Part shown: piece by piece, positions 49,578 to 63,993 of the stretch
Numbering within the stretch: position 1 is the first letter of the stretch
Layout: every line of letters starts with the position of its first letter
Assembly (NCBI GenBank): GCA_963667465.2
Contig: CAXXDN010000002.1
Coordinates: 1,664,001 to 1,728,000 of the forward strand
DNA: 64,000 bases
Origin: Dehalococcoidia bacterium
GTDB taxonomy: Bacteria > Chloroflexota > Dehalococcoidia > UBA2979
Reading direction: 5' to 3'
Position numbers and translations under genes: made by a program
The notes under the pieces: generated by a model
What the model was told of the DNA's origin: nothing
What the model saw: only the letters and a program-made list of their open reading frames with translations
Databases searched by the model: none

Positions 49578-49691
49578 CCAGCGCCCCTCTCCCCGGCTCC
49601 CGCCTTCTACCCGGCCGTTTCGCTTGCCTCGACCGGTAGGCTGGAACGAGCGATGCCGATGACTCACATCCCCGACCCGACGGAGACTGCT

Positions 49692-51254
49692 ATGCGAGCA
49701 ATCATCTACTCCCGCGTCTCGACCGACGCCCAGGAACGCGACGGAACCTCGCTCGATACGCAGGAGCGCGCCCGCGACGAGGTGGCCGCCGACCGCGGCT
49801 GGCGTGTGGTGCGCCGTATCCGCGAAGCCGCGAGCGGCGGGATGCTCGAACGTGACGGCCTCGACGAGTTGCGGGAGGCGCTGCGAAGGGGAGAAGCGGA
49901 GGTGGTCGTCGCCTTTGCCGTTGACCGCCTCTCACGCAGCCAGAACCACATCGGCATCCTCTTCGACGAGTTCGAGCGCGCTGGCGTGCGCCTGGAGTTC
50001 GTGACCGAGCGCTTCGAGGACACGGCCGTGGGGCGCTTCATCCTCGCCGCGCGCGCGTTCATCGCCGAGGTCGAGCGGGAGAAGATCGCCGAGCGCACGA
50101 TGCGCGGCAAGGAGGAGCGGGCGCGCAGCGGGCGCCTCCCGCAGGCGTTCGGGCGCGGCTGCTATGGATACACCTACAACGCCGGCACCGGTCGCCGCGA
50201 GGTTGAGCCGTTCCAGGCTGCGGTCGTCCGGCGCATCTTCGAGCGCTACGCCGCAACCCGCAGCTTCTCGGCCGTCTCCAACGAGCTCAACGAGGCCGGC
50301 ATCCCCGCGTTCTCAGGGGGGCGCTGGTACCCGATCACCGTCCGTCGGTCGCTACTCAACGAGGCCTACATCGGCCGCACGGTGTACCGACGGACAAAGC
50401 GCGTTCGGGTGCCGGCCGCCGGGAGGCGCAGGCGGACGCGTGTCGTCGAGCGGCCCGAGGAGGAGCGGATCGAGATTCCGGACGCCACGCCAGCAATCAT
50501 CGAGCACGACCTGTGGGAGCGCGTCCAGGCGATCCTGAACGACCCCGAGCGCACGAAACGGCGTTCCACGCCGAAGCGAGACTACGTGCTGCGCGGCCGT
50601 CTGCGCTGCGGCGTTTGTCGCAGCGCGATGGTGGGACACACGCTCAGCGCCAAGGGCAAGAGCTACGCGTACTATCGCTGCCGTCACGCCTACGCTCGCA
50701 ACACGGGCCACCACTGTACGGCTCGCTACGTCCCGGCGGAGGCGCTGGAGCAAGAGATCCACGCCGAGGTGCGCAAGGTGCTTACCGCCCCGGAAGTCGT
50801 CCTGAGCGAACTACGACAGCAGGGCGGGTCGGACGCCGACAGTGAAGCGCGCGAGGGCCTTGAGGCGGAACTGGCGGCGCTCCAGAGGCGCGAGGAGCGC
50901 CTTGTGCGGCTCTTCGGCTACGACGAGGTCGACGGCGACGTGGTCCGCGCGCAGTTCCGCGAGGTGCAGCAGCGGCGGGCGATGCTCAACGGCGAGTTGG
51001 CCTCGCTCACAAGCGCCCGAACGCCGCTGGGTGAGGATGTTGATGAAGGGCTCCTTCATGAAGCGTGTGCAGCCATTGCCGCGCGACTCGATGAAGCCGG
51101 ACCGGCGAATCAACAGGTCGTGCTCGAGGCGATGCAGGTGAACGCCACCGCGACCCGCGAAGAAGTGACGATCGAGGGGATTCTGCCGCTCAAACCCGCA
51201 GAATCTGCTCAATCCTGCACTGAGTTTAAGACCATTGAACAAACATCGGTATGA
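49692..51254 (+). CDS. Large serine recombinase (integrase)
   Basis: YSRVST catalytic Ser, DRLSR, recombinase domain, CGVC..YYRC zinc ribbon, coiled coil. Confidence 0.95.
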   Translation: MRAIIYSRVSTDAQERDGTSLDTQERARDEVAADRGWRVVRRIREAASGGMLERDGLDELREALRRGEAEVVVAFAVDRLSRSQNHIGILFDEFERAGVRLEFVTERFEDTAVGRFILAARAFIAEVEREKIAERTMRGKEERARSGRLPQAFGRGCYGYTYNAGTGRREVEPFQAAVVRRIFERYAATRSFSAVSNELNEAGIPAFSGGRWYPITVRRSLLNEAYIGRTVYRRTKRVRVPAAGRRRRTRVVERPEEERIEIPDATPAIIEHDLWERVQAILNDPERTKRRSTPKRDYVLRGRLRCGVCRSAMVGHTLSAKGKSYAYYRCRHAYARNTGHHCTARYVPAEALEQEIHAEVRKVLTAPEVVLSELRQQGGSDADSEAREGLEAELAALQRREERLVRLFGYDEVDGDVVRAQFREVQQRRAMLNGELASLTSARTPLGEDVDEGLLHEACAAIAARLDEAGPANQQVVLEAMQVNATATREEVTIEGILPLKPAESAQSCTEFKTIEQTSV

Positions 51255-51796: not shown

Positions 51797-52513
51797 TTAT
51801 GAGCCTGCCCTCTGCTCCCACCTCTTGAGCAAGCTGCCCCTGTCCCTGATGGGACCCCAGTCGAGGCCTCTGAAGCTGCGGTCGGCATTGATCCGCTCGA
51901 TGATGTCGCGCAGCACCGCAACGCCCGCCTGGGACCAACCGTTAGCCAGGGCCCACGGGACTATTTCGTCGGCGTTGAGATCATGATCCCACCGCCTGAG
52001 GTACTGAAGTCTGCGTATAGCGTCAGTCCGGTCTCGACCTGTTGCAAGGTCGTTTGCCAAGTTGACGACAGTTGTGATGTCCTCCATGGCGGCTAGTACA
52101 ACGCCGTCCCTGATGCCCGGAACGAGAGGCTCACTGGCGGGCGCAGTGACGTCTCGGGCCCCGCGAGCTGTTAGCCAATCCCGACAGCTGTCTTCCACCC
52201 ACTTCAGGATGCATACGGAGGTAATGCGCTCGGACCAGCGATCGATGCACTCAAGAACCTTGTCATCGGACCAAGGAGCGAGCACGGGACCACCCGGCCA
52301 GTCGTGAGGCGGGAAATTCCTCGGGATGCTCCACCGCACACCACTCGACGTGAGCGCGCGGATTACATCGTTCGATGACGCCTGCCTAGTCGTCGGCACA
52401 AGAATGAATGCAATGCCCTCGCGCGCATGCTCGGCGAGCCACCGCCTTCCCAGTTCGGCGGCCTGAGGGCTGCCGCCGAGCGCTTGGACGTGTGGAACGT
52501 AGTACACGAGCAC
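51797..52513 (-). CDS. Hypothetical protein
   Basis: GGAGG RBS, globular-looking 238 aa. Confidence 0.7.
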   Translation of the reverse strand: MLVYYVPHVQALGGSPQAAELGRRWLAEHAREGIAFILVPTTRQASSNDVIRALTSSGVRWSIPRNFPPHDWPGGPVLAPWSDDKVLECIDRWSERITSVCILKWVEDSCRDWLTARGARDVTAPASEPLVPGIRDGVVLAAMEDITTVVNLANDLATGRDRTDAIRRLQYLRRWDHDLNADEIVPWALANGWSQAGVAVLRDIIERINADRSFRGLDWGPIRDRGSLLKRWEQRAGS

Positions 52514-52672
52514 CTGATACCTCCCGACCTATCCAGTTGCGGGTGTGCGGTCACAAGTCGCGTTCGGAGCGCTCACCGTGCTCTGCAGGGAGCGGACCCG
52601 CGCAGAACCAGAAACATGGGCCACTAAGTGCCAGGCCGGAGGAACTGATGGTCCCTGAGACTGGCTTCCCCT

Positions 52673-53251
52673 CTATCGTGGTGCAACTCGCTTGCGCTTC
52701 CGCGCCGCGTTCTGTCTCGCCACCCCGGTGACGTTCAAACGGTACCGCGCCATGGTCTCACTGACGCCGTGACGCTTTGCGATATCGCTTGCGGTCGCCC
52801 CTCGACGGATCTCCGCAAGGAGTAGCGGTCGAGGAAGGAGAAGGCACCCAGACAACCAGGCTGCCTCCTCCTCCTGAACAGGATCACAAGAGAGGAAGGT
52901 GACGTCGCCGAGCGTTTCGATTCGGCTCAGGTCGTGGTCGAGCAGGATGTGCCCGAGTTCGTGCGCAAGGTCACTCGCCCGGCGGGGGGGCGCAGACAGG
53001 GGATTGAACACGATCACTACGCGATCGTCTGAAGGACGGAACGTGCAGGCTGAGAACGCATCGGGCTGTAGCTCATCGAGGGCAACGAATCGGCTGCGCG
53101 GGATCAAGTCCTCTCCCGATCGGACCTCGACACCGAGGAGTTCCGCTAGGGCCTCGGGCGTGACCGGGTCAGCAGCCGCCAACCCGAGGTCCACCCTCAC
53201 GCTCTTCGCGATCCTCTCCGCTTCTGACTTGAACCCCCTACGAAGCGCCAT
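52673..53251 (-). CDS. ImmA/IrrE (CapP-like) metallopeptidase
   Basis: MALRRGFK.EAE, LAHELGHILL.H, QEEEAAW. Confidence 0.9.
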   Translation of the reverse strand: MALRRGFKSEAERIAKSVRVDLGLAAADPVTPEALAELLGVEVRSGEDLIPRSRFVALDELQPDAFSACTFRPSDDRVVIVFNPLSAPPRRASDLAHELGHILLDHDLSRIETLGDVTFLSCDPVQEEEAAWLSGCLLLPRPLLLAEIRRGATASDIAKRHGVSETMARYRLNVTGVARQNAARKRKRVAPR

Positions 53252-53708
53252 CCTGTGATTCCCTCAAGAGCGCCTCGTGCAGGTCGTTCACCAGTTCCCC
53301 GAGGGTGTGAGCAGCGTCGGGCCTGAACGTCTTCGCTGCCCTCAGATGCACCGCCGCGACTCTTTCAGGACGGGCCAACGCCGCGTAGAGGTCCTTTACG
53401 ATCCCTGCGATTCGATCAGCCGCATCCGGGGGAAGATTGCGATCCGAGCGAAGGTGCTCCGCGATCACGTCAGTGGTCACCGCAGCTTTCTCGAGGGGCT
53501 CGAAGAACTCGGCGATGTCCGCCCCACACCACTCGACGAGACGCTTGAACTTCGGTAGGTCCGGTACGTGGCCTTTCTCGACTCGGGCCAGGGTGTTGAA
53601 CGGAATCCCGACGGTGTCGGCGGCCTCGCGGAGACTCATTCCGCGCCGGTTCCGCTCGGCCGCGACGAGCCGTCCTAGGTCACCGAGGTCGCGGTTGCCA
53701 GCCGCCAC
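53238..53708 (-). CDS. XRE HTH regulator (CapH-like)
   Basis: SLREAADTVGI..TLARVEKG; C-terminal VHLRA; overlaps the peptidase gene. Confidence 0.85.
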   Translation of the reverse strand: MAAGNRDLGDLGRLVAAERNRRGMSLREAADTVGIPFNTLARVEKGHVPDLPKFKRLVEWCGADIAEFFEPLEKAAVTTDVIAEHLRSDRNLPPDAADRIAGIVKDLYAALARPERVAAVHLRAAKTFRPDAAHTLGELVNDLHEALLRESQDGAS

Positions 53709-53751
53709 ACGTCCCCCTGTGCGTAAAGTGGTACGCCGCACCAAGCGCAGT

Positions 53752-53804
53752 TTGACACAACTGGCCGCCGCGCGCTAGGTTGGTGCTGTACCGATTACGG
53801 TACA
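53752..53804 (+). promoter_or_regulatory. Promoter and palindromic operator for the Ubl operon
   Basis: TTGACA-18-TAGGTT followed by TGTACCG-ATTA-CGGTACA. Confidence 0.55.
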
Positions 53805-53837
53805 CCAGTGCACAAGTGGTTCAGAGGAGGATCCGCG

Positions 53838-54089
53838 ATGCCTGACGACAAGGACAAGATCACGATCATTGTGAACGGCCGCGAGCGGATCGTCACGTCG
53901 GACGAGCTCTCGTTCAGCGAAGTGCTCGCACTCGCCTTCGACCCGTTGCCTTCGGGTCCGAACTGGGAGTTCACCGTCACCTACCGTAACGGCGCTGGCC
54001 GCCCGCCCGATGGTCGGCTCCGCCCCGGCGGTCAGGTCAAGGTCGAGGACGGAACCGTCTTCAATGCCACCGCAACTGATAAGTCGTAG
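53838..54089 (+). CDS. Ubiquitin-like beta-grasp (multiubiquitin-family) protein
   Basis: IIVNGR..LSF.EV..LAF..TVTY..G..VKV.DG.VFNAT.TDKS; GAGGAGG RBS. Confidence 0.85.
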   Translation: MPDDKDKITIIVNGRERIVTSDELSFSEVLALAFDPLPSGPNWEFTVTYRNGAGRPPDGRLRPGGQVKVEDGTVFNATATDKS

Positions 54090-55236
54090 CCCCGATCTCC
54101 AGCGGCTCGCGGACGAGGGCTACGAAATCGAGGTGCGCGGCGGCCACCTCCTGCTGAAGCAAGTTCCCTACGTAACCGAGGAGCGTGTCGTCGAGCGCGC
54201 CACTCTCGTCTCCCCACTCGACCTCGCAGGGGATGTCGCTGCCCGCCCGAGCAGTCATGTCGTGATGTTTACTGGGCGGGCACCGTGCAACAGCGACGGG
54301 AAGCCTCTAAGCAACATCATTCATTCTGCTGGTCAGTGGGACCTGGGCGGCGGCCTGGTCGCTCGGCACAAGTTCTCAAGCAAGCCGGCAGCCGGCTACG
54401 CGGACTACTACGCGAAGATGTCGACGTACGCGGAAATCCTGTCCGGCTACGCGCAGGCCATCGACCCTGCAGCGACGGCTCGGACGTTCATTGTGGTCCC
54501 CGAGGAGGACACAAACTCGGTGTTCCAGTACGTCGATACAGCGTCGAGCCGGTCCGAAATCGCTGCGATCACAGAGAAGCTCACGCTCGCTGCGGTAGCG
54601 ATCGTTGGGCTCGGGGGCACGGGATCGTACATTCTCGATCTCGTCGCGAAGACGCCGGTCGGCGAGATCCACCTCTTCGACGGCGACGTCTTTGGCCAGC
54701 ACAACGCCTTCCGGGCTCCCGGCGCGCCATCGGTCAACGTACTCAGGGCACGACCCAGGAAGTCCGACTACCTCCGCAGCATCTATTCCAACATGCACCG
54801 CAACATCATCGGTCACGGCTACCTCGATCAGGGCACAACCGACATTCTGTCATCCATGGACTTCGCGTTCGTGGCCGTGGATGACGCCGATGCCAGGAGG
54901 CTGGCGGTCGAGACGCTGCTGGGCGCCGGCGTACGGTTCGTCGATGTGGGGATGGGTGTTAGCGAGGTTGACGGGGCGTTGCTCGGGCAGTTGCGAGTCA
55001 CGTCTGCGACGCCGGACGACCGCGATCACGTTCTCTCGACGATCCCACTTATGCCCCCACCCGGGGATGACGACTATTCGCAGAATATCCAGATCGCGGA
55101 CCTCAACGCGCTGAACGCCGCCCTCGCCGTCCTTAAGTGGAAGAAGCTCATGGGGTTCTACCTGGATCTGGGACAGGAGCACTCCAGCTGGTACCAGATT
55201 GACGGCAACCACCTGGTCAATGAAGCGCGAGCATGA
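54064..55236 (+). CDS. E2-like (DUF6791) + E1/ThiF adenylyltransferase fusion
   Basis: VPYV..PC..FSSKP..DYYAK, then IVGLGGTGSY, FDGD..HNAFR, AVD, DVGMG. Confidence 0.85.
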   Translation: MPPQLISRSPDLQRLADEGYEIEVRGGHLLLKQVPYVTEERVVERATLVSPLDLAGDVAARPSSHVVMFTGRAPCNSDGKPLSNIIHSAGQWDLGGGLVARHKFSSKPAAGYADYYAKMSTYAEILSGYAQAIDPAATARTFIVVPEEDTNSVFQYVDTASSRSEIAAITEKLTLAAVAIVGLGGTGSYILDLVAKTPVGEIHLFDGDVFGQHNAFRAPGAPSVNVLRARPRKSDYLRSIYSNMHRNIIGHGYLDQGTTDILSSMDFAFVAVDDADARRLAVETLLGAGVRFVDVGMGVSEVDGALLGQLRVTSATPDDRDHVLSTIPLMPPPGDDDYSQNIQIADLNALNAALAVLKWKKLMGFYLDLGQEHSSWYQIDGNHLVNEARA

Positions 55237-55598
55237 GCCGTAGAGCGGCCCTCGATCACGAGTTCGTCCATCACATCCCAGAGCATCTTGCCGATGGGGT
55301 GCTGTACGTCTCTGTCGCCTTCGCGACGGCCCTGCACAGGTGTTGCTGCGGATGCGGCAACGAGGTCGTGACCCCGCTCAGCGCACACGATTGGAGCCTG
55401 ACCTTTGACGGCGAGTCGATCTCTCTCTGCCCGTCGATAGGCAACTCGAGCTTCGAGTGCCAGTCGCACTACTACATCCGGCGCAACAAAGTCATCTGGC
55501 TGCGCTCCTTCGCGGAGACGGAGTCCGAGCCACGCCTGCCTCTCTGGCGGCGGATCGTGCCGAGGTGGCTGAAGGTGCCGAGAGCGGGTCGAGGGTGA
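55233..55598 (+). CDS. DUF6527-like Cys/His protein
   Basis: HRCCCGCG.EVVTPL..W..SL.PSIGN..CQSHYYI. Confidence 0.85.
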   Translation: MSRRAALDHEFVHHIPEHLADGVLYVSVAFATALHRCCCGCGNEVVTPLSAHDWSLTFDGESISLCPSIGNSSFECQSHYYIRRNKVIWLRSFAETESEPRLPLWRRIVPRWLKVPRAGRG

Positions 55599-55683
55599 CC
55601 CGCGCGAAACTCGGAGACACACGTTGAGGGTCGACCAGTGAGGCAACACTAGCCCGGCGGCCCGCAAGCTCAGGGTATGAACC

Positions 55684-56550
55684 ATGGCTGAAAACGCTGA
55701 ACCGCGACCACCCTTTCCTGCAGACTACGAATCCTCGCGCCGGCGAGTCACATTGGCGCTCGTCGCGTACCGCTACAACGACTTCGCGAGGCTGCACCAG
55801 ATGCTCACTTGGTGCGATCCGCGAGTCCCGCGCAACTGGTCAAGCTGGGCTCCCCTCTTCCTCCCGGCTGTGCTTCTCGTGATCATCGGGTCAGTACTCG
55901 ATCACGCACGTGTGACTGATGCGACGGAACTTGCAGCTGCACTCTTCCTGCTTGTCGGGATCCCCTTCTCGTACGCGTTCCTCGTTGGGTTTCCACTGGC
56001 TTGGCTACTGACGAGTGCGCTCAGCCCCCAAGTTAGAGCGTCCCTCGAGCGCCGAGTGCGTGAGTGCTTGGTGACGTTCTTCGATCTGTACGGCAAATCG
56101 ATCCCCACCGGAGACGGAAATCGAGGCTCGCTCACCGCATTGGGGGACGACCTAGGGCCCGTGAATCGGCCACGCCCGAGCCTATCGGCCTGGAGTAAAG
56201 CCTGGGTGCTCCTCATCGGCACCTCTGCGGTGTTCGTGCGCAGCTGGGTTGGAGACGGGAGCGATGCGGAATCGCTTACCGCGTTCGTTGAGGCATCGTC
56301 CTCGTCCTGGAGCATTCCTGCGCTCCTGATTGGGCTCTCGCTCATCGTCACCTCGCGCTTGGCCGAACAGGCAAACCGCGATCTCTATGAGGCTGAACTG
56401 CAACCCCCACTGAAGGAGCTGTCCGCAGAGTTCGGGAATGTGGCCGACTTGGCTCGATACCCCGGTTCTCTTGTGACCGACGTTGTCGGTGTGGCGGGGG
56501 TGGCCTTGGTCACAGCGGCGGTCGTGGCACTCGCCGCGAACCTAACGTAG
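55684..56550 (+). CDS. Multi-TM membrane protein
   Basis: About 5 hydrophobic segments; co-directional with the Ubl operon. Confidence 0.65.
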   Translation: MAENAEPRPPFPADYESSRRRVTLALVAYRYNDFARLHQMLTWCDPRVPRNWSSWAPLFLPAVLLVIIGSVLDHARVTDATELAAALFLLVGIPFSYAFLVGFPLAWLLTSALSPQVRASLERRVRECLVTFFDLYGKSIPTGDGNRGSLTALGDDLGPVNRPRPSLSAWSKAWVLLIGTSAVFVRSWVGDGSDAESLTAFVEASSSSWSIPALLIGLSLIVTSRLAEQANRDLYEAELQPPLKELSAEFGNVADLARYPGSLVTDVVGVAGVALVTAAVVALAANLT

Positions 56551-56733
56551 CGACGGTACACGCAGCCGGCGTGGCGAGAGCTCCACGACGGGACGCGCAT
56601 CACCCCTGGCGCGTGAGGTCCAACATCCTGAGCTGAACCCCGCCCTACGAGCTCGCGCGGGGGCAAGCCAGTGCGTGCCAGCTGGAGCAGGGTTTGCTAG
56701 CATCCACGCTAGAGGAAACGACGGGGAGGGTGC

Positions 56734-56973: not shown

Positions 56974-58182
56974 CTACGGCGCCCCTGACGCTTGCGTGCC
57001 GGCGGCCGACGGGAGCGCTGGGATCGCTCGGGACTCTGGGAATTCGATAGCGTAGTTCGGAGTGAACGGCTGGGTTGTGACTCGGGCCGACTCGATGCGA
57101 TCAAGCCGGTACGCTCGGTGCTCACGACTCTCCGCCCGTAGCGCGTGGAGAAGGATGTCCCCCGCCCGTGACTGCCTCAACGAGTACGGCTCAATCAGCC
57201 GATTCCCACCCTGGTACCCAAGATCAACGAGCAAGCGGTTCACAGCTGCAAACCGGACGGGCTCAATGCGGTTCCCCAACCCCGTCGTCCAGAAGGTCGG
57301 TGGCGGTGTCCAGAGATCGTCCTCCGCCGCCAGCGGTACGGGCTCAGGGGACTCTTCACCGTTGAGCCAGGCGAAGAGCCGCGGCAGCTCGGACCAGAAG
57401 TGGTTGAAGTCCGGGAGGGCTCTCAACTGGTGGTCGAGCATGTTCGCCCACTCGGTTTCGAGCTCGTCGAACATCGGGGAAGTCCGGATGCTCTCGACTG
57501 AAGGGATGGCGATCCCTTTCGACGAGCACTTCTCGGCCAGGATCTCGCGGACCAGTGCGGCGTACGGCAAGAGGTCCGGCCGACGGAAGAGGTTGATGAT
57601 GTCGTAGAGGTCCCGCGGCCTCGACCGCTCGCCCATCGCGCGCAGCTTCTCGGCGAAGACCTCCTCGAAGCCGTAGCAGCGAACTTGCGCCGGCTCGGGC
57701 AGTGCATCGGGATAGTCGTGGCTGATGGACCTCAGGACCGACGGCCGCACCACGACTTCGTCTGTGGTCAGGTCGAGCTTGATGCTCGCTGGACCGGGCG
57801 CGTTGCGCGGCCCGCGATAGTAGAGTCGCCCCTCTGCTGATGCTCCGGACGAACGGCTCCTGCAGATGGGTGGTCGCACCGCGAAGTCGATGCCGGACTC
57901 CTGACTGACACGGTCGAGTACACGCTCGACCGCCGCGAGCACCTCTTCCGGCTCTATCGGCCCCTTTTCAAGAACCGTGAAGTCGAGGTCCTCGGAGAAC
58001 CGGTACGTCTCGATGTAGCACTTCTTCAGGCACGTCCCGCCCTTGAAAACCCACGTCCGGCCGAGTAGTGGGTCGGCCCCGATACCCCATAGCACCCACC
58101 CGAGGGCGTAGTCCTTCTCGACTACGTCCTCGCGGAGACCCCAGGCGCGCACGCGGTCGTCGATGTCGGCACGACCGATCAC
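56974..58182 (-). CDS. AbiEii-family nucleotidyltransferase toxin with C-terminal WYL-like domain
   Basis: EKDY, FKGGT.LKK, RFSEDLDF, AEK.RA..R.RPRDLYD; tail R.IEPYSL..YRLDRI. Confidence 0.88.
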   Translation of the reverse strand: MIGRADIDDRVRAWGLREDVVEKDYALGWVLWGIGADPLLGRTWVFKGGTCLKKCYIETYRFSEDLDFTVLEKGPIEPEEVLAAVERVLDRVSQESGIDFAVRPPICRSRSSGASAEGRLYYRGPRNAPGPASIKLDLTTDEVVVRPSVLRSISHDYPDALPEPAQVRCYGFEEVFAEKLRAMGERSRPRDLYDIINLFRRPDLLPYAALVREILAEKCSSKGIAIPSVESIRTSPMFDELETEWANMLDHQLRALPDFNHFWSELPRLFAWLNGEESPEPVPLAAEDDLWTPPPTFWTTGLGNRIEPVRFAAVNRLLVDLGYQGGNRLIEPYSLRQSRAGDILLHALRAESREHRAYRLDRIESARVTTQPFTPNYAIEFPESRAIPALPSAAGTQASGAP

Positions 58183-59048
58183 GGTCGAGCCTCCTCAACA
58201 GGAGCAAGCCGCCCCACGTTCACGCGGAGATTCCAACGCGAGACGATCCGGCCTTCCCGCGGGCCGGCAGGATCGAGCCAGCTCAAGCCACGAGTGATCC
58301 GGCTGTGACACGCGCCGATGAAGCTCGTGTCCGCAAGCTGCTGCCGCTCCACCAGGTACCCGAGCCGCTTGAAGACGGTACCGCGGCCCAGCCGGTCGCC
58401 GTACTCCAGGAGACGTGCTGGATCGGCACCGGCACTCTCGAAGTACGTGGTGAGGACTTCGGAGGCATGCAGCGCACCTCCCGCCGCACCCGGCACGTCG
58501 AGAACATCGATGATGGTGCGGTGTGGGTCGGACACATCGACAGCCACCTGTCGGCGCCAGACACGCCGCGTGCCGAACAGTGCCTCCCTGGGCACGCTCC
58601 GAATGGTGAAGTCCGTACCCTGAACCAACTGTCGAGTAGGCGTGACCTTCTTTCCAGCGACGACGTAGATGACGCTGAAGATCTGGTCCGTCAGCCCCCA
58701 GTGCTCTGCGGCGCTCCAACCTCCGATGTAACCTGGACTGAACAGGGTTGCGGCCACGATCCATGGATCTTCTCGCCACTCGCTCGGCTCGGAGGCCTCA
58801 AGCGGGACTGCGATGTACCAGCCTGGGCGCACACGCGAGAGCCAGCCGCCAGCAGCGAGCGCCGCGAGCAGACGGCGCGTGGGTCCGATCGCCGTACCGA
58901 GCACCGACGCTGCCCGAGTGGCGTTGAACGGACCAGGGAACCTCCGATGAAGCACGGCCAGCTGCGCTCGCCGCCGACGCCCGAGGCCGGCTGCCAAGCT
59001 GCCCTCGCGGTACATCGTGACTCGATTGTCTTCTGTAAGACTGGACAC
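58179..59048 (-). CDS. AbiEi-family antitoxin
   Basis: wHTH; YIGGWSAAEHWGLTDQI, SDPHRTIID, KRLGYL. Confidence 0.85.
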   Translation of the reverse strand: MSSLTEDNRVTMYREGSLAAGLGRRRRAQLAVLHRRFPGPFNATRAASVLGTAIGPTRRLLAALAAGGWLSRVRPGWYIAVPLEASEPSEWREDPWIVAATLFSPGYIGGWSAAEHWGLTDQIFSVIYVVAGKKVTPTRQLVQGTDFTIRSVPREALFGTRRVWRRQVAVDVSDPHRTIIDVLDVPGAAGGALHASEVLTTYFESAGADPARLLEYGDRLGRGTVFKRLGYLVERQQLADTSFIGACHSRITRGLSWLDPAGPREGRIVSRWNLRVNVGRLAPVEEARP

Positions 59049-59317
59049 TTTGCCCTCGCAATGTAGGTCAGTATATCAGAGGACGTGACTTTTCTTCCAT
59101 AGAGTGGACTGTGGACTTTCAGTATACCGAGGCCCTCCTCCAGAACAGCGACCCGAGATCCCGACGCTCACCGCGAACGAGCTCGAATCGGGTAAGGATG
59201 CCGCCCACGGCGCTCTTCCGGCTCACCCCAGGAACTCCGGGCCCAGACATCGGCGAGGCGGTGATGTAATGTCGGTACTTATTGACATCGTCCAACGTAT
59301 CAAAGCACTATCGGACC

Positions 59318-59920
59318 ATGAGCAAAGCGGGCACGGAAGAGATCCTCGACCTCGTGCGAGAGGCCGGGCTGGTACGTCCGCGCGACCTCGAGTCGGCCGG
59401 CGTTCCGGGAGGCTCCCTCGCGCAACTGGCGCAGAGAGGTCTGCTGGAGAGGCTCGGCCGTGGCCTGTATGCGGTGCCCGGTGCCGCACCAAGTGAGCAC
59501 CGCTCGCTCGCGGAGGTCTCGAAGCGGACGCCACGAGCGGTAGTCTGCCTGCTCTCGGCACTGCGCTTTCACGGACTCACTACCCAGGCGCCGGCCGAGG
59601 TCTGGCTGGCGATCGGGCCAAAGGATCGGGCCCCGAGGGAGCACAGCGTGCACCTGCGGATCGTGCGCGCCTCGGGCGAGGCGCGCGATGCAGGCGTCGA
59701 GACACATGTCGTCGAGGGCGTGCCTGTCCGCGTCTACGGTGCGGCGAAGACCGTGGCGGACTGCTTCAAGTTCAGGAACAAGATTGGCACCGACATCGCT
59801 GTCGAGGCGCTGCGCGACTGCCTCGAACAGCGCCGCTGCACCGCCGACGAACTCTTCGAATACGCTCGCGTCTGCCGCGTCTCGCGCGTGATGCGCCCCT
59901 ACTTGGAGGCACTCGCATGA
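59318..59920 (+). CDS. Second AbiEi-family antitoxin (orphan)
   Basis: LERLGRGLY, VCLLSAL.FHGLTTQ, KTVADCFKFRNKIG; TTGACA-18-CACTAT suggests a leaderless transcript. Confidence 0.9.
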   Translation: MSKAGTEEILDLVREAGLVRPRDLESAGVPGGSLAQLAQRGLLERLGRGLYAVPGAAPSEHRSLAEVSKRTPRAVVCLLSALRFHGLTTQAPAEVWLAIGPKDRAPREHSVHLRIVRASGEARDAGVETHVVEGVPVRVYGAAKTVADCFKFRNKIGTDIAVEALRDCLEQRRCTADELFEYARVCRVSRVMRPYLEALA

Positions 59921-59940
59921 GTCCCGAGCTTCTGTGGTCC

Positions 59941-60170
59941 CTATCGACGCCCGGGCGGGACGCGCCTGATCGGGGGTTCCGAGACGAAGGCGTCTCCTTC
60001 GGGGCTCGCGACTGCCGCTTCAGCGCCGTGAGAGCCTCGATGAGTTCCGGGGCCTCGCACCGCCCGGCGTCTTCGACAGCGAGCTGGCATGCGCTCGCGA
60101 AGAACACGATCCAAAGGCTGACACCGGCGAGGGCCCGCTCGGAATCGGGCGCGCCTTCGTAGGGCGTCTC
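59941..60170 (-). pseudogene. Fic-family C-terminal remnant with internal deletion
   Basis: YEGAPDS..WIVFFASAC..AVEDA joined to EAPELIEALT.L.RQ/ASPEGD. Confidence 0.5.
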
Positions 60171-60227
60171 TGAGATGCCCCTACCAAGGGCGCTGACACC
60201 CTCCGAGACCGCCAACCGCGATTTCTC

Positions 60228-60307
60228 ACCACGGGAGGAAACAAGGCATGAAGCTCCGGTCGTGCGAAAAAGGGTGCGCCAGGCTGTATCTGGCGCTCTC
60301 ATTCTGA
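60228..60307 (+). repeat. Second att-like site and copy 2 of the 60-bp repeat
   Basis: ACCACG..AACAAG.CATG followed by the repeat. Confidence 0.75.
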
Positions 60308-60486
60308 GGCGCCGAGCTGCGCGGCGCTCCCGTAGTCCGAATCCTCGCGGGGCGACCCCGCCCGTTACCCTCTCCGGCAGACGGTGCCGCTCGTGGCGAG
60401 CGTGGCAGGGGTGGCGCACACCCGCGTGGATCCCTCTCCGGCTTGCTGCTCGTTCCTCCAGCGGGAGTACCGAGGAACATTGATAG

Positions 60487-63400
60487 TCACTCAAGGGGAG
60501 TAGAGCCCGTCGTCTCGGCATGACCTGCCTCGGACTCCGACTCGTCAGGTGGAGGCTCCGGTGGTTCTGGTTCAATCCCGAGAGCGTCAGCGAGTCTGCG
60601 CACCGCCTCAGAAACCTCTTCACCTTCTCCCGTTGGGTCCAAGGCCCTGCGCACCCGACTGCGGAAGTCTTGGACAGCGCTCCGGTCGCTGTGCTCCCCA
60701 AGAAGGTCCGGTGCCGAGCGGAACACGTCCGCGAGCCAACTGAGGCCGTTGGCATTGTTCTGGACAAGGAACGGTCGGCACACACGGTCGACGAAGCCGC
60801 GCTGCGTCAGCAAGAAGGCCTTTTCGGCGACGAGTCCGCCGTAGAGGTCGAAGAATGGCCTCGTCGCCGTTCCATCAGCCCCCTCGAGGGCCTCATACGC
60901 GCGGCGAGTCAGTAGATCCTCGTTCTCGTCACCCAGGACTTCCACTAGCTCGGGTAGAGACTCACTGATGCCGCTGTCGCCATCCGCGCTTACGGCCGCT
61001 TGAGCGTGTGACGTGAGGCCATCCAGATAGTCCGTTCCCAGCTCAATGGTCTCGCGGCGCCGGTGTAGTTCTAGGACTAAGGCAACGAGGTCATCGTTCT
61101 CCTTGAGCGACTCAGCCCAAGTTTCCGCTGCAACGGACCGCAGGCCGACAGCGCACCAGGCCGATAGCGCTTCATCATCACCGGCTCGCAGGATGGCCAA
61201 GTAGAGTGGAGCGCCACTTGGCTCGAACCGCCCAGTGACGATCAGTGCCGAAACATCGGTCCGTGACGGCAAGCCCCGCACGAATTCTTGGAATGCATCG
61301 GTAGCGTCGCCGTCTTCTGGATCTGGCAGATTCGACCGGATCTTGCCCCAATGCCCCTGGACAAACCCGGAATCGTTCACGGCTGGATCATCGTCGATCA
61401 GATCCCTGAAGGCCTCATTGAGCAACGTGGGTTCGGGTGGCTCCTCGTCGAGGATGCGCGCCAGCTCTGGTAGCCCTCCCTCTTGGCGGGCGATGGAAAC
61501 GAATTCGTCGAGCGCACCAGGCACGCTGTCCGGATTGCGCAACAACTCAAGAAGCGGCTCATGCCCGAGCGGCGAGTTGCCGATGTGTTGGTTCGGCTCC
61601 CGGGCGTCAGGAATCGACTGGAGGTACGCGAACGCGCATCTGGCCGTGGCCTCGGCGTGCGCCTCGGAGACAGCCTGATACAAGTGGTGGAGCAGGGATC
61701 CCTCCGTGGCAAGGCGCTCGTAGCTTGCGTTGTCGACGAGACCCGCAGAGCGGCAAGCTGTCAGCGCTCGCATCACCAGTGCGATCTGTTGAGCACCCAC
61801 TCCTTCGGCGTTCCGGACGCTGTCGAACAACTGGTTCGTGGTACGCGTGAGTGACCCTGTAGCCGGGGTGCGCAGGGTTACTTCGAGCAGCGAGATGATG
61901 TCGCTGTCAATCTGCTCCGGTGTGCTGCGCTCGGAGAGGGCAGTATCGATCTCTTCCGCTTCTATCAGCTCAAGCCGCTGCCACAGGCGTCCGCCCGGGT
62001 CGTCGCTCCGGAATTGCGGAGCGACTTCCAGCCATTGATCCGCGGACAGCGGTACTCGGAGTGCCGAAGCGACGCCGAGTTCGTCCAAGCCTCGAAGCAG
62101 GACGAACGCCGCACTCATCCACCCATGAGGGGACACTTGCGCGCCGGAGGGCTCCTCCTGCTCCTGTTGGACGCTAGCCGCAGCAACCGCGCTCAGGAGT
62201 TGCTCAGTGAACGAGGTCTCGGTACCGGCAACCCGGCAGAGCGAGACCAATCCCCCGGCGGCCTCCTCGGTGAACGGCTGCCACGCCCTTACTGCGACTG
62301 CAGCCGCGCTAACACGCTCCAGAACCGATGCTGCTTCCCGGCGCTGCGGCGGAGCCGAGTCTCCGAAGAGCCCGCTCGTGTCTAGCGCCGTCGCTGCCCG
62401 CGCGAAGTCTTGCGGCCCTACGTCACCCCATTCTCCGGCGCCAGCCGGGACCGAGTCTTCGAAGACGGCCCAGAATCCGTCGCCATGAGCGGCTTCCAGT
62501 GCGCGCAGTGCTTCGCCGTCAGCAGCGCTGAGGGCGGTCTCGATCGGGTCTCTGAGGACCATCTCTCTGGCTTGCCTGATTGGAGCATTGAAGTAGAGGA
62601 CTGCCAGGGTGTCCCGCCACCCGTCCCCAAGCAATTCCTCCGCGAACAAGGCGTCTTCGTTTCCTGCCGCGGAGCGAAGTGCTGTCTCCGCAACTTCATC
62701 ACGCTGGAGCAGCACGAAGCAGGCGAGGTCCGAGAGCGTAAGCCCGTCTGCGTGCTGCCACTGCCGATGGACCGCGCCGAGCTCATTGACGAACAACTTC
62801 AGATCGCGCGGTTTCGGTTTCGCAGCCTCGAGTCCGCTGCGCAATGCGAAGGCGCGGTAGACACCGTGGAAGTCCTCCTCCGAGTGCTCCGGCAAGGCCT
62901 CGGCGAGGGCCGCGCTGAGGTAGTTGCGCCAGTTCGATATGGCTGGAGGTGGGATTCGGAAGCGGATCTGGAAGGTCTTGTCGAGGAAGGACTGGGCGAC
63001 CGCACCCTCGCGCTCACCCGTGATGCCGTCGCCCCATAGACTCAGGATGCCGGTACGGTCGAACGGGACGAGTACCCAGAGTCGGCGAAACCACTTTGGG
63101 CGTTCGTGCTCGCTGTACTGCAGGAAGGTCTGTAGGGTCGACCATACGGCCAGCGCGTTTTCGGGATCCACGCGATCGAGGTTATCAATCGCCAACACCA
63201 ACTGACGTTCCCCCTCGTCTTCAAGGGCCTCGTCGCAGAGATCCCGGAAGATGGATTCGAACTCCACGGAGGTGGGATCGTGCGTCTCAGTGACCAATGT
63301 CCGGCTCTCCGTAGTGGATTGGCCCGTTACCAATGCGGGCAATCCGCCTGAGTGGTCGTCAGCCGCCTTCGCCCCGCATTCGCCACGGCGGCGCACCCAT

Positions 63401-63993
63401 CGGTGAATCCCGGCCGCCGTAAGAACGAGAAGCGGGGCCAGAACCCCAACGAGACCAATCCCGAGGAACCGGGCCGCGCCGACAGTTGATGGGTTCTCAG
63501 CAGTGAGCGCCGTCGCGCCTGCCGCGATCAGGGCCGATCCGGTTGGGATCGCAAGTAGCGAGAGCGCGAAGGCGATCCCGTACCGGGTAAGCTGCGGAAT
63601 CACGCGCTGAGTCTCTTCGCGCCGTCGCTTCGTCAGGTGCTCAACGCGCTTATCCCAGTTGTCACGATGGACCCAGCCAGCGTCCTGCATATGCCGGATG
63701 AGCTTCTCAAGGAACGTCCGCCGAAGAGGGTCTCCCTGGTGTGCCCACACGTCGAATACGGCAACACGCGTGTTCCCCGCACCGCCTTCTTCGAGCCTTT
63801 GGGTGACAAGCGTCACGACCGTGGACTTGCCTGCACCCCAGCCTCCTTCGAGACCGATGGCCTTGCCGCCACCCTCGTGGCGAACAAGATCAGCGATGGC
63901 CGTGGCGAGTCGGTCGTGCGGACCACCGAACGTGTCCTCAGCAGCGGGCTCATCAGAAAGAAGCCGTGTGCGGCAGTGGTTCGAGTCGGTCAC
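60487..63993 (-). CDS. KAP-family P-loop NTPase with 2 TMs and long helical C-terminus
   Basis: GLEGGWGAGKS, FDVWAHQ, IDNLDR, FLDKTFQ, PRDLK. Confidence 0.9.
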   Translation of the reverse strand: MTDSNHCRTRLLSDEPAAEDTFGGPHDRLATAIADLVRHEGGGKAIGLEGGWGAGKSTVVTLVTQRLEEGGAGNTRVAVFDVWAHQGDPLRRTFLEKLIRHMQDAGWVHRDNWDKRVEHLTKRRREETQRVIPQLTRYGIAFALSLLAIPTGSALIAAGATALTAENPSTVGAARFLGIGLVGVLAPLLVLTAAGIHRWVRRRGECGAKAADDHSGGLPALVTGQSTTESRTLVTETHDPTSVEFESIFRDLCDEALEDEGERQLVLAIDNLDRVDPENALAVWSTLQTFLQYSEHERPKWFRRLWVLVPFDRTGILSLWGDGITGEREGAVAQSFLDKTFQIRFRIPPPAISNWRNYLSAALAEALPEHSEEDFHGVYRAFALRSGLEAAKPKPRDLKLFVNELGAVHRQWQHADGLTLSDLACFVLLQRDEVAETALRSAAGNEDALFAEELLGDGWRDTLAVLYFNAPIRQAREMVLRDPIETALSAADGEALRALEAAHGDGFWAVFEDSVPAGAGEWGDVGPQDFARAATALDTSGLFGDSAPPQRREAASVLERVSAAAVAVRAWQPFTEEAAGGLVSLCRVAGTETSFTEQLLSAVAAASVQQEQEEPSGAQVSPHGWMSAAFVLLRGLDELGVASALRVPLSADQWLEVAPQFRSDDPGGRLWQRLELIEAEEIDTALSERSTPEQIDSDIISLLEVTLRTPATGSLTRTTNQLFDSVRNAEGVGAQQIALVMRALTACRSAGLVDNASYERLATEGSLLHHLYQAVSEAHAEATARCAFAYLQSIPDAREPNQHIGNSPLGHEPLLELLRNPDSVPGALDEFVSIARQEGGLPELARILDEEPPEPTLLNEAFRDLIDDDPAVNDSGFVQGHWGKIRSNLPDPEDGDATDAFQEFVRGLPSRTDVSALIVTGRFEPSGAPLYLAILRAGDDEALSAWCAVGLRSVAAETWAESLKENDDLVALVLELHRRRETIELGTDYLDGLTSHAQAAVSADGDSGISESLPELVEVLGDENEDLLTRRAYEALEGADGTATRPFFDLYGGLVAEKAFLLTQRGFVDRVCRPFLVQNNANGLSWLADVFRSAPDLLGEHSDRSAVQDFRSRVRRALDPTGEGEEVSEAVRRLADALGIEPEPPEPPPDESESEAGHAETTGSTPLE

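Follow-up and report, generated by a model that had tools for sequence, protein, structure and literature searches.

Introduction

How might a ubiquitin-like protein (Ubl) be attached to anything if it ends in serine instead of glycine and if the enzyme expected to activate it has no cysteine in its activating half? The question is posed by five genes at positions 52673-55598 of a 64,000-nucleotide stretch of DNA from a bacterium of the Dehalococcoidia (the window: positions 1,664,001 to 1,728,000 of contig CAXXDN010000002.1, assembly GCA_963667465.2). An initial annotation, made from the letters of the sequence, saw here an operon for Ubl conjugation by non-canonical chemistry under the control of a CapH/CapP-type pair, and held that no mechanism was known for operons of this type. 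The first judgment was right in kind. The second is outdated, since Bub systems have been named and characterised biochemically (10.1101/2024.11.21.623953). In particular, Type II Bub operons (formerly 6E.2/DUF6527) were characterised by Ye, Gong, Chambers, and Corbett in that bioRxiv preprint, which has a companion on Ubl architecture (10.1101/2024.11.21.623966). A search of the literature for DUF6527 returned only these two, and the PDB entries of the Bub work were released on 2025-09-24.

The answer, in brief, is that the locus is very probably an intact and orthodox Type II Bub operon, accompanied by a short CapH/CapP-like pair. The features that had been flagged as odd are normal for the Type II Bub family.

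Gene content of the locus

A Type II Bub operon is defined by genes for BubA (the Ubl), BubBD (a fusion of E2-like and E1-like domains), and BubE (a DUF6527 protein), usually without a JAB peptidase (10.1101/2024.11.21.623953). The elements found in the window are these (values in parentheses are Pfam E-values):

52673-53251, minus strand: capP-like zinc metallopeptidase of the IrrE/ImmA family, 192 amino acids, a short form (Peptidase_M78, 1.2e-17)
53238-53744, minus strand: capH-like helix-turn-helix (HTH) repressor of the XRE family; the coordinates are those of the longest open reading frame, and the GTG at 53708 is the likelier start (HTH_31, 4.2e-08; HTH_3, 4.1e-07)
53752-53757 and 53776-53781, plus strand: putative bubA promoter as read from the sequence, TTGACA and TAGGTT separated by an 18-nucleotide spacer
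53784-53807: operator-like inverted repeat with arms of 10 nucleotides, 90% complementary and 4 nucleotides apart; core GTACC-N6-GGTAC at 53788-53803
53838-54089, plus strand: bubA, a single beta-grasp ubiquitin-like protein of 83 amino acids (Multi_ubiq, 3.6e-16)
54064-55236, plus strand: bubBD, 390 amino acids, an E2-like DUF6791 domain (residues 1 to about 150) fused to a ThiF-type E1 adenylation domain (DUF6791, 4.3e-57; ThiF, 1.2e-10)
55233-55598, plus strand: bubE, a DUF6527 Ser-His protease with a C4 zinc site, 121 amino acids (DUF6527, 5.5e-24)

The complement is thus Multi_ubiq, DUF6791-ThiF, and DUF6527, without JAB. BubBD reaches 525 bits with NCBIfam NF004805, for which the cut-off is 352. 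The ATG taken as the start of bubA is preceded by GGAGG, while the longest open reading frame begins at 53808. Overlaps of 26 nucleotides (bubA/bubBD) and 4 nucleotides (bubBD/bubE) join the three genes. The product of the third is rich in cysteine and histidine, and the initial annotation rightly took it for a Cys/His protein rather than a JAB peptidase: no JAB domain was found by Pfam scan of ten proteins from the window. NCBI names its Escherichia coli orthologue "ubiquitination-like system serine protease family protein".

Conservation of the catalytic residues

What is expected of such an operon has been set out for the E. coli system. According to Ye et al. (10.1101/2024.11.21.623953), adenylation by E. 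coli BubBD requires R219, the Ubl forms an oxyester with a tyrosine (Y342) on the crossover loop of the E1 domain, and it forms another with a serine (S106) of the E2 domain, beside which lie an invariant lysine and histidine. BubA and BubBD alone sufficed in vitro to produce ATP-dependent covalent conjugates of BubA, and the substitutions R219A, Y342F, and S106A each abolished the conjugate. In the same preprint, the DUF6527 protein (BubE) is described as a protease with a Ser-His dyad and a C4 zinc site, and S92A/H102A led to loss of cleavage.

The residues of the window were followed through the best 80 of 556 confirmed loci (L001-L080), drawn from species-representative genomes of many phyla and 51-86% identical; proteins were aligned, so that counts are out of 81 with the window included. 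A second and independent set consisted of 120 database proteins plus that of the window. BubBD residues R217, Y338, S105, H65, and P74 are each found in 81/81, and K107 in 80/81. Because S106 (59/81) and H102 (69/81) of the window's protein are less conserved, S105, K107, and H65 were taken as the published E2 triad. The crossover loop thus offers an invariant tyrosine, in an E1 half without cysteine. The larger set of BubBD proteins gives the same picture (R217 in 121/121), with Y338 in 119/121. R217 aligns with an arginine of Citrobacter BubCD in the PDB, presumably R227, if the offset in numbering is as we suppose. In BubE, C37, C39, C41, and S68 are present in 81/81 and C76 and H79 in 80/81, with a spacing that parallels C57/C59/C61/C99, S92, and H102 of Citrobacter. 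The initial annotation had offered DUF6527 as either ligase or peptidase, and peptidase was the right choice of the two.

The AlphaFold 2 model of BubBD is of high confidence overall (mean predicted local distance difference test, pLDDT, 89.3). The only segment below 50 comprises residues 335-339, which include Y338, as expected if this is a mobile crossover loop. When the model was compared with known structures by Foldseek, the top matches were Citrobacter BubCD (9eav/9ea5/9eae/9ea8/9ea4, E about 1e-13), followed by UBA5, ThiF, MoeB, and MccB.

A cysteine in the E2-like half

As the initial annotation had observed, the ThiF/E1 half lacks cysteine, and the only cysteine in the fusion lies in the E2-like half, within APCN. 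This is C75 (54286-54288). From it came the proposal that the E1 half merely adenylates, and that the Ubl moves straight from the adenylate to C75, forming a thioester there without ever being bound covalently to the E1. There is something to be said for this. The sole cysteine of the fusion is kept in 79/81 and in 119/121 sequences, and it is present in an E. coli BubBD of 49% identity. It follows the invariant P74 in a well-modelled loop, placed after strand 66-69 and before the hairpin ending at S105. Furthermore, the main text of each Bub preprint makes no mention of it. However, the residue is histidine in two of the loci (L061 and L075), where nothing is amiss in the Ubl, BubE, or any of the remaining catalytic residues, and in one database protein; in another database protein it is arginine, again with the other catalytic residues intact. 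A nucleophile would not tolerate such replacements, and the idea of a cysteine acceptor is therefore unlikely. Meanwhile Y338, S105, and R217 stand without exception in the 81, and in E. coli loss of either the tyrosine or the serine hydroxyl (Y342F, S106A) costs the conjugate. Direct transfer to the cysteine must be considered very improbable.

The orthodox Tyr-to-Ser relay leaves C75 with something to explain, nonetheless, and the point is taken up below.

The serine terminus of BubA

BubA ends ATATDKS, with no glycine within its last 11 residues, and here too the initial annotation read the sequence correctly. A terminal serine is no peculiarity of this strain. Homologues of BubA were found in 79 of the 80 loci, and all 79 end in serine, with tails of TDKS (59 loci), TDRS (6), TVQS (4), TNKS (3), TDNS (2), and five others once each. 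The best solved relative, the multi-ubiquitin protein of E. coli ZDHYS365 (PDB 9cd2, E-value 4.4e-07), aligns to its last residue and also ends TDKS, and TIQS is the tail of BubA from another Type II locus of E. coli. Given these tails and the ATP-dependent conjugates of the E. coli protein, a Ubl ending in serine is evidently the Type II norm, competent without processing. Processing to an internal glycine was considered and rejected. The last glycine, 11 residues before the C-terminus, belongs to the conserved strand region DGT[VI]FN, and the E. coli BubA carried the same TDKS tail in both the crystal and the assays.

One might suppose the serine to be an accident of overlapping genes. The bubA stop comes 26 nucleotides after the bubBD start codon in 79/79 loci, and the same overlap is found in E. 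coli ES2. In the window, the last eight codons of bubA and its stop (54064-54089) double as the first nine codons of bubBD in a second frame. The start codon at the junction is ATG in 78 of the loci and TTG in one. The codon for the terminal serine varies (TCG, TCT, TCA), however, and as it does the overlapping BubBD codon changes meaning. Selection therefore acts on the serine itself, which is no by-product of the overlap. The main text of neither Bub preprint mentions the terminal serine.

Perhaps, then, no protein is tagged at all, and the ThiF-like enzyme modifies a small serine-terminated protein, either as a sulfur carrier or by a C-terminal modification such as that made by MccB. The terminal serine is indeed unlike the glycine of known Ubls and sulfur carriers, and the structures that match the E1 half include MccB, ThiF, and MoeB. 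Yet it was a BubA with this very TDKS end that formed covalent, ATP-dependent conjugates with BubBD in the E. coli work, as reported in the preprint. Moreover, both the E2-like domain and the deconjugating protease are still encoded in the operon, their active sites conserved, and Pfam found no sulfurtransferase or rhodanese domain in the ten window proteins that were scanned. Of all the explanations considered, this one has the least chance of being true.

Proposed regulation by the HTH/M78 pair

Upstream of the bub operon and opposite to it lie the genes for the HTH protein and the HExxH metallopeptidase, which is the CapH/CapP arrangement. In characterised CapH/CapP systems, single-stranded DNA activates a peptidase, which cleaves the repressor (10.1101/2022.04.27.489752; 10.64898/2026.05.16.725639), and 6e systems were already counted among the associated operons (10.1101/2022.04.27.489752). 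Ye et al. put the number of Bub operons adjoined by CapH and CapP at 168/544, or 31% (10.1101/2024.11.21.623953). The best PADLOC model for the M78 protein is capP (4.9e-11), matched over profile positions 4-150 of 242. Alignment of the protein with its homologues makes visible HELGH and a downstream EEE. Homologues of the HTH protein begin with a methionine that aligns with Val 13 of the window's longest frame, and a C-terminal block is conserved among them.

The initial annotation spoke of a divergent HTH + IrrE pair sharing a palindromic operator. The inverted repeat is there, but the two genes are not divergent from each other: they overlap and run together on the minus strand, and it is as a pair that they diverge from bubA-bubBD-bubE. 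The repeat between the capH-like gene and bubA is more than chance, to judge from comparison of related loci. Its core, GTACC-N6-GGTAC, is invariant, with GTAC and GGTAC unchanged in 11/11 aligned homologous intergenic regions, where mean column identity is 47%. Immediately upstream of the core stand TTGACA and a hexamer containing TA; TTGACA and this TA are conserved in most of the 11 regions.

The same pair might be suspected of serving another master. CapH/CapP and the ImmR/ImmA switches of mobile elements are members of one family (10.1101/2022.04.27.489752), and the pair could govern excision or transfer of the island and merely neighbor the Bub genes. The island does carry a serine recombinase and a lower G+C content, and the peptidase is short and ImmA-like, with no GAF domain. 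Against this, at least 14 of the 80 loci have the divergent pair, next to bubA, together with bubA-bubBD-bubE (E-values down to 1e-109), a count that is a floor, since thirteen loci had less than 1.5 kb of upstream sequence. The loci bearing the pair come from records of Chloroflexota, Latescibacterota, Acidimicrobiia, and Cyanobacteriota. The conserved operator core lies beside bubA, and the neighboring genes of 238 and 288 amino acids appear in none of the 80 loci. A switch for the island is accordingly a poor explanation, with little prospect of being right, and regulation of the Bub operon by the pair is preferred.

If the pair acts as its family does, then the locus would be damage-inducible, which is a reasonable inference from the regulators, here in a form without GAF. 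In 33% of the CapP proteins of CBASS (antiphage signaling systems based on cyclic oligonucleotides), a cysteine-switch loop is found between HExxH and the third zinc ligand. C121 of the CapP-like protein lies between HELGH and EEE, where it could be a candidate cysteine-switch residue; it is kept in the window and 10 close homologues and absent at that column in 4 distant ones.

Points that weigh against the assignment

Several results count against a reading of the locus as an ordinary Type II Bub operon under a CapH/CapP pair, some of them touching the regulators. The characterised CapP has three domains, including a C-terminal GAF domain (10.1101/2022.04.27.489752), and the M78 protein, at 192 amino acids, does not have this composition: it lacks GAF, with about 90 C-terminal positions of the capP profile unmatched. 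The match of the HTH protein to PADLOC capH is weak (0.006). A consensus scan of 52500-56700 for promoters and terminators found nothing, hence no sigma-70 consensus promoter. As for the role of such operons, Ye et al. report that they found no protection of E. coli from phage by any Bub operon (10.1101/2024.11.21.623953), which leaves an antiphage role unproven.

Other results concern the E2-like domain. Modelled alone, it is of high confidence (pLDDT 94.8), yet Foldseek returned 0 matches at E <=0.001; E2, Atg3, Atg10, and UEV folds appeared only as weak matches (E 0.3-1.6, TM score 0.2-0.33). A profile of the domain, compared by sequence with the PDB, drew chance matches only (E 0.3-0.4), and hhalign of the Type II E2 profile with five Type I E2 sequences gave a probability of 0.2%, which is not significant. 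For its part, a Type I BubAB (from L090) matched no PDB chain at E <=0.001. The low-confidence hhalign pairing may serve as a lead: it sets H65 against the Asp of DMF, P74 against Pro, and S105 against the Ser of an S-x-H motif. By this motif comparison with Type I E2 domains, itself not significant, P74-C75 can tentatively be placed at an HPN-like position, next to the catalytic serine. It is thus published work and the conserved motif that support the E2 assignment; the fold comparisons of the present analysis do not.

Finally, there is C75, conserved in 79/81 and yet without a role in the published scheme. Its part could be that of a third acyl carrier, which would make the relay a mixture of oxyester and thioester, or that of an oxyanion residue, a proton shuttle, or a redox switch. 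Likewise, BubA's terminal serine might use its hydroxyl in the transfer itself or in being recognised by BubE. That Type II Bub chemistry should be richer than the published Tyr-to-Ser relay, through C75, the terminal serine, or both, is a notion we regard as unlikely.

Proposed mechanism

These considerations suggest the following sequence of events at the locus. As conservation of the site suggests, the HTH repressor would occupy the GTACC-N6-GGTAC operator, which comes right after the putative bubA promoter. Under stress, the M78 peptidase would cleave the repressor, as others of its family do, allowing transcription of the translationally coupled bubA-bubBD-bubE. The E1 domain of BubBD would adenylate the C-terminal carboxylate of BubA Ser83, by means of R217 and ATP. 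The Ubl may then be taken as an oxyester by Tyr338 on the flexible crossover loop, pass to Ser105, which has K107 and H65 as neighbors in the E2 domain, and go from there to a lysine of a target protein. The tag would be removed by BubE, through its S68/H79 dyad and with its zinc site of C37/C39/C41/C76. The steps from adenylation to tag removal have been demonstrated in the E. coli and Citrobacter relatives (10.1101/2024.11.21.623953); for the window they are predicted from conservation of residues.

Operon type, oxyester chemistry, protease, and the link to CapH/CapP are already in print, and the instance itself adds little. Interest lies with the family rather than with this copy, that is, with the invariant serine terminus, the conserved cysteine, and the biological target. 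The comparative counts sharpen questions about the family: how a serine-terminated Ubl is activated and recognised, what the E2 cysteine does, and what Bub does for the cell. The window does offer a compact example of the actinobacterial/Chloroflexota type, with an 83-amino-acid, single-domain Ubl, all five genes of the module, and an operator whose conservation is clear, and experimenters may find it a handy minimal system.

Genomic context and distribution

The operon lies in an island where G+C content falls from about 0.70-0.75 upstream to about 0.62-0.66. The gene of a large serine recombinase (49653-51254) stands just before the low-G+C region. No tRNA gene was found in the window, hence no tRNA attachment site. 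Beyond the operon, positions 56974-63993 hold an AbiEii/AbiEi pair (the AbiEii with a WYL region), a second AbiEi-like gene (59282-59920), and the gene of a KAP-family P-loop NTPase of 1168 amino acids that runs to the end of the window. Together with the 288-amino-acid gene described next, these give the operon the setting of a defence island.

Two neighbors were considered as parts of the system and rejected. Directly after bubE there is an open reading frame of 288 amino acids with long hydrophobic stretches (55684-56550). It has no homologue in the 80 loci and no match in Pfam, NCBIfam, or PADLOC, and is probably separate cargo of the island. On the other side, downstream of capP, the 238-amino-acid gene on the minus strand (51797-52513) is absent from the 80 loci and matches no family.

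Close orthologues of BubBD occur in 2/19 genomes of the genus, the window's own included, and the distribution is therefore patchy; one more genome has a distant homologue (38% identity). Elsewhere the family is thinly spread: in another class, DUF6791 was found in 1/400 scored genomes (the centre genome itself) and Prok-E2_E in 5/400, with one additional genome left unscored in both counts.

Comparison with known systems

The nearest comparison is with the Type II Bub of E. coli ZDHYS365. The two share three genes in the same order, the E2-E1 fusion with its arginine, crossover tyrosine, and E2 serine, lysine, and histidine, the DUF6527 dyad and zinc site, and the TDKS end; the 26-nucleotide overlap is shared with E. 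coli ES2, whose BubBD is 49% identical. They differ in the Ubl, which has one beta-grasp domain (83 amino acids) here and three in E. coli BubA (222 amino acids in 9cd2), and in the CapH/CapP-like pair, which is lacking from the annotation of the ES2 locus.

Bil systems and Type II CBASS are more distant. The likeness consists of bacterial conjugation of the Ubl or E1/E2 type, linked to defence loci, and Cap2 too is an E2-E1 fusion; weak PADLOC E1-E2 matches fall on the adenylation domain of BubBD. Those systems are described as using catalytic cysteines, in E1 and E2 alike, and a JAB/JAMM peptidase, whereas the window has an E1 without cysteine, no JAB, and DUF6527 as the protease. On the regulatory side, the pair resembles CapH/CapP and DdrO/IrrE, as well as ImmR/ImmA, in joining an HTH repressor to an HExxH M78 peptidase, upstream on the opposite strand. 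It differs from characterised CapP in its 192-amino-acid, GAF-less peptidase, for which there is only the candidate cysteine-switch C121, confined to the close clade.

The Type I system of Citrobacter (6E.1; 9ea4, 9ea5, 9ea8, 9eae, 9eav) supplies the best structural match for the E1 adenylation domain. The crossover-loop tyrosine, the E2 serine, and BubE are common to both, as is, following Ye et al. (10.1101/2024.11.21.623953), oxyester chemistry. In Type I (BubAB-BubCD-BubE), by the published description, fusions join the Ubl with the E2 and the E1 with a JAB peptidase, while the window has no JAB. The Type I Ubl ends in glycine after cleavage by JAB, in contrast to the genetically encoded serine found here, and the Type I E2 serine is flanked by histidine and aspartate, not by lysine and histidine.

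Type I-like Bub loci of a different layout were seen in three genomes of another class (L086, L087, and L088). There, multi-ubiquitin and Prok-E2_E are separate reading frames, not a BubAB fusion, and a JAB-E1 fusion adjoins them. In L087 a stop codon comes directly after the QQG end of the Ubl. The arrangement in these loci would give a glycine-terminated Ubl that needs no processing.

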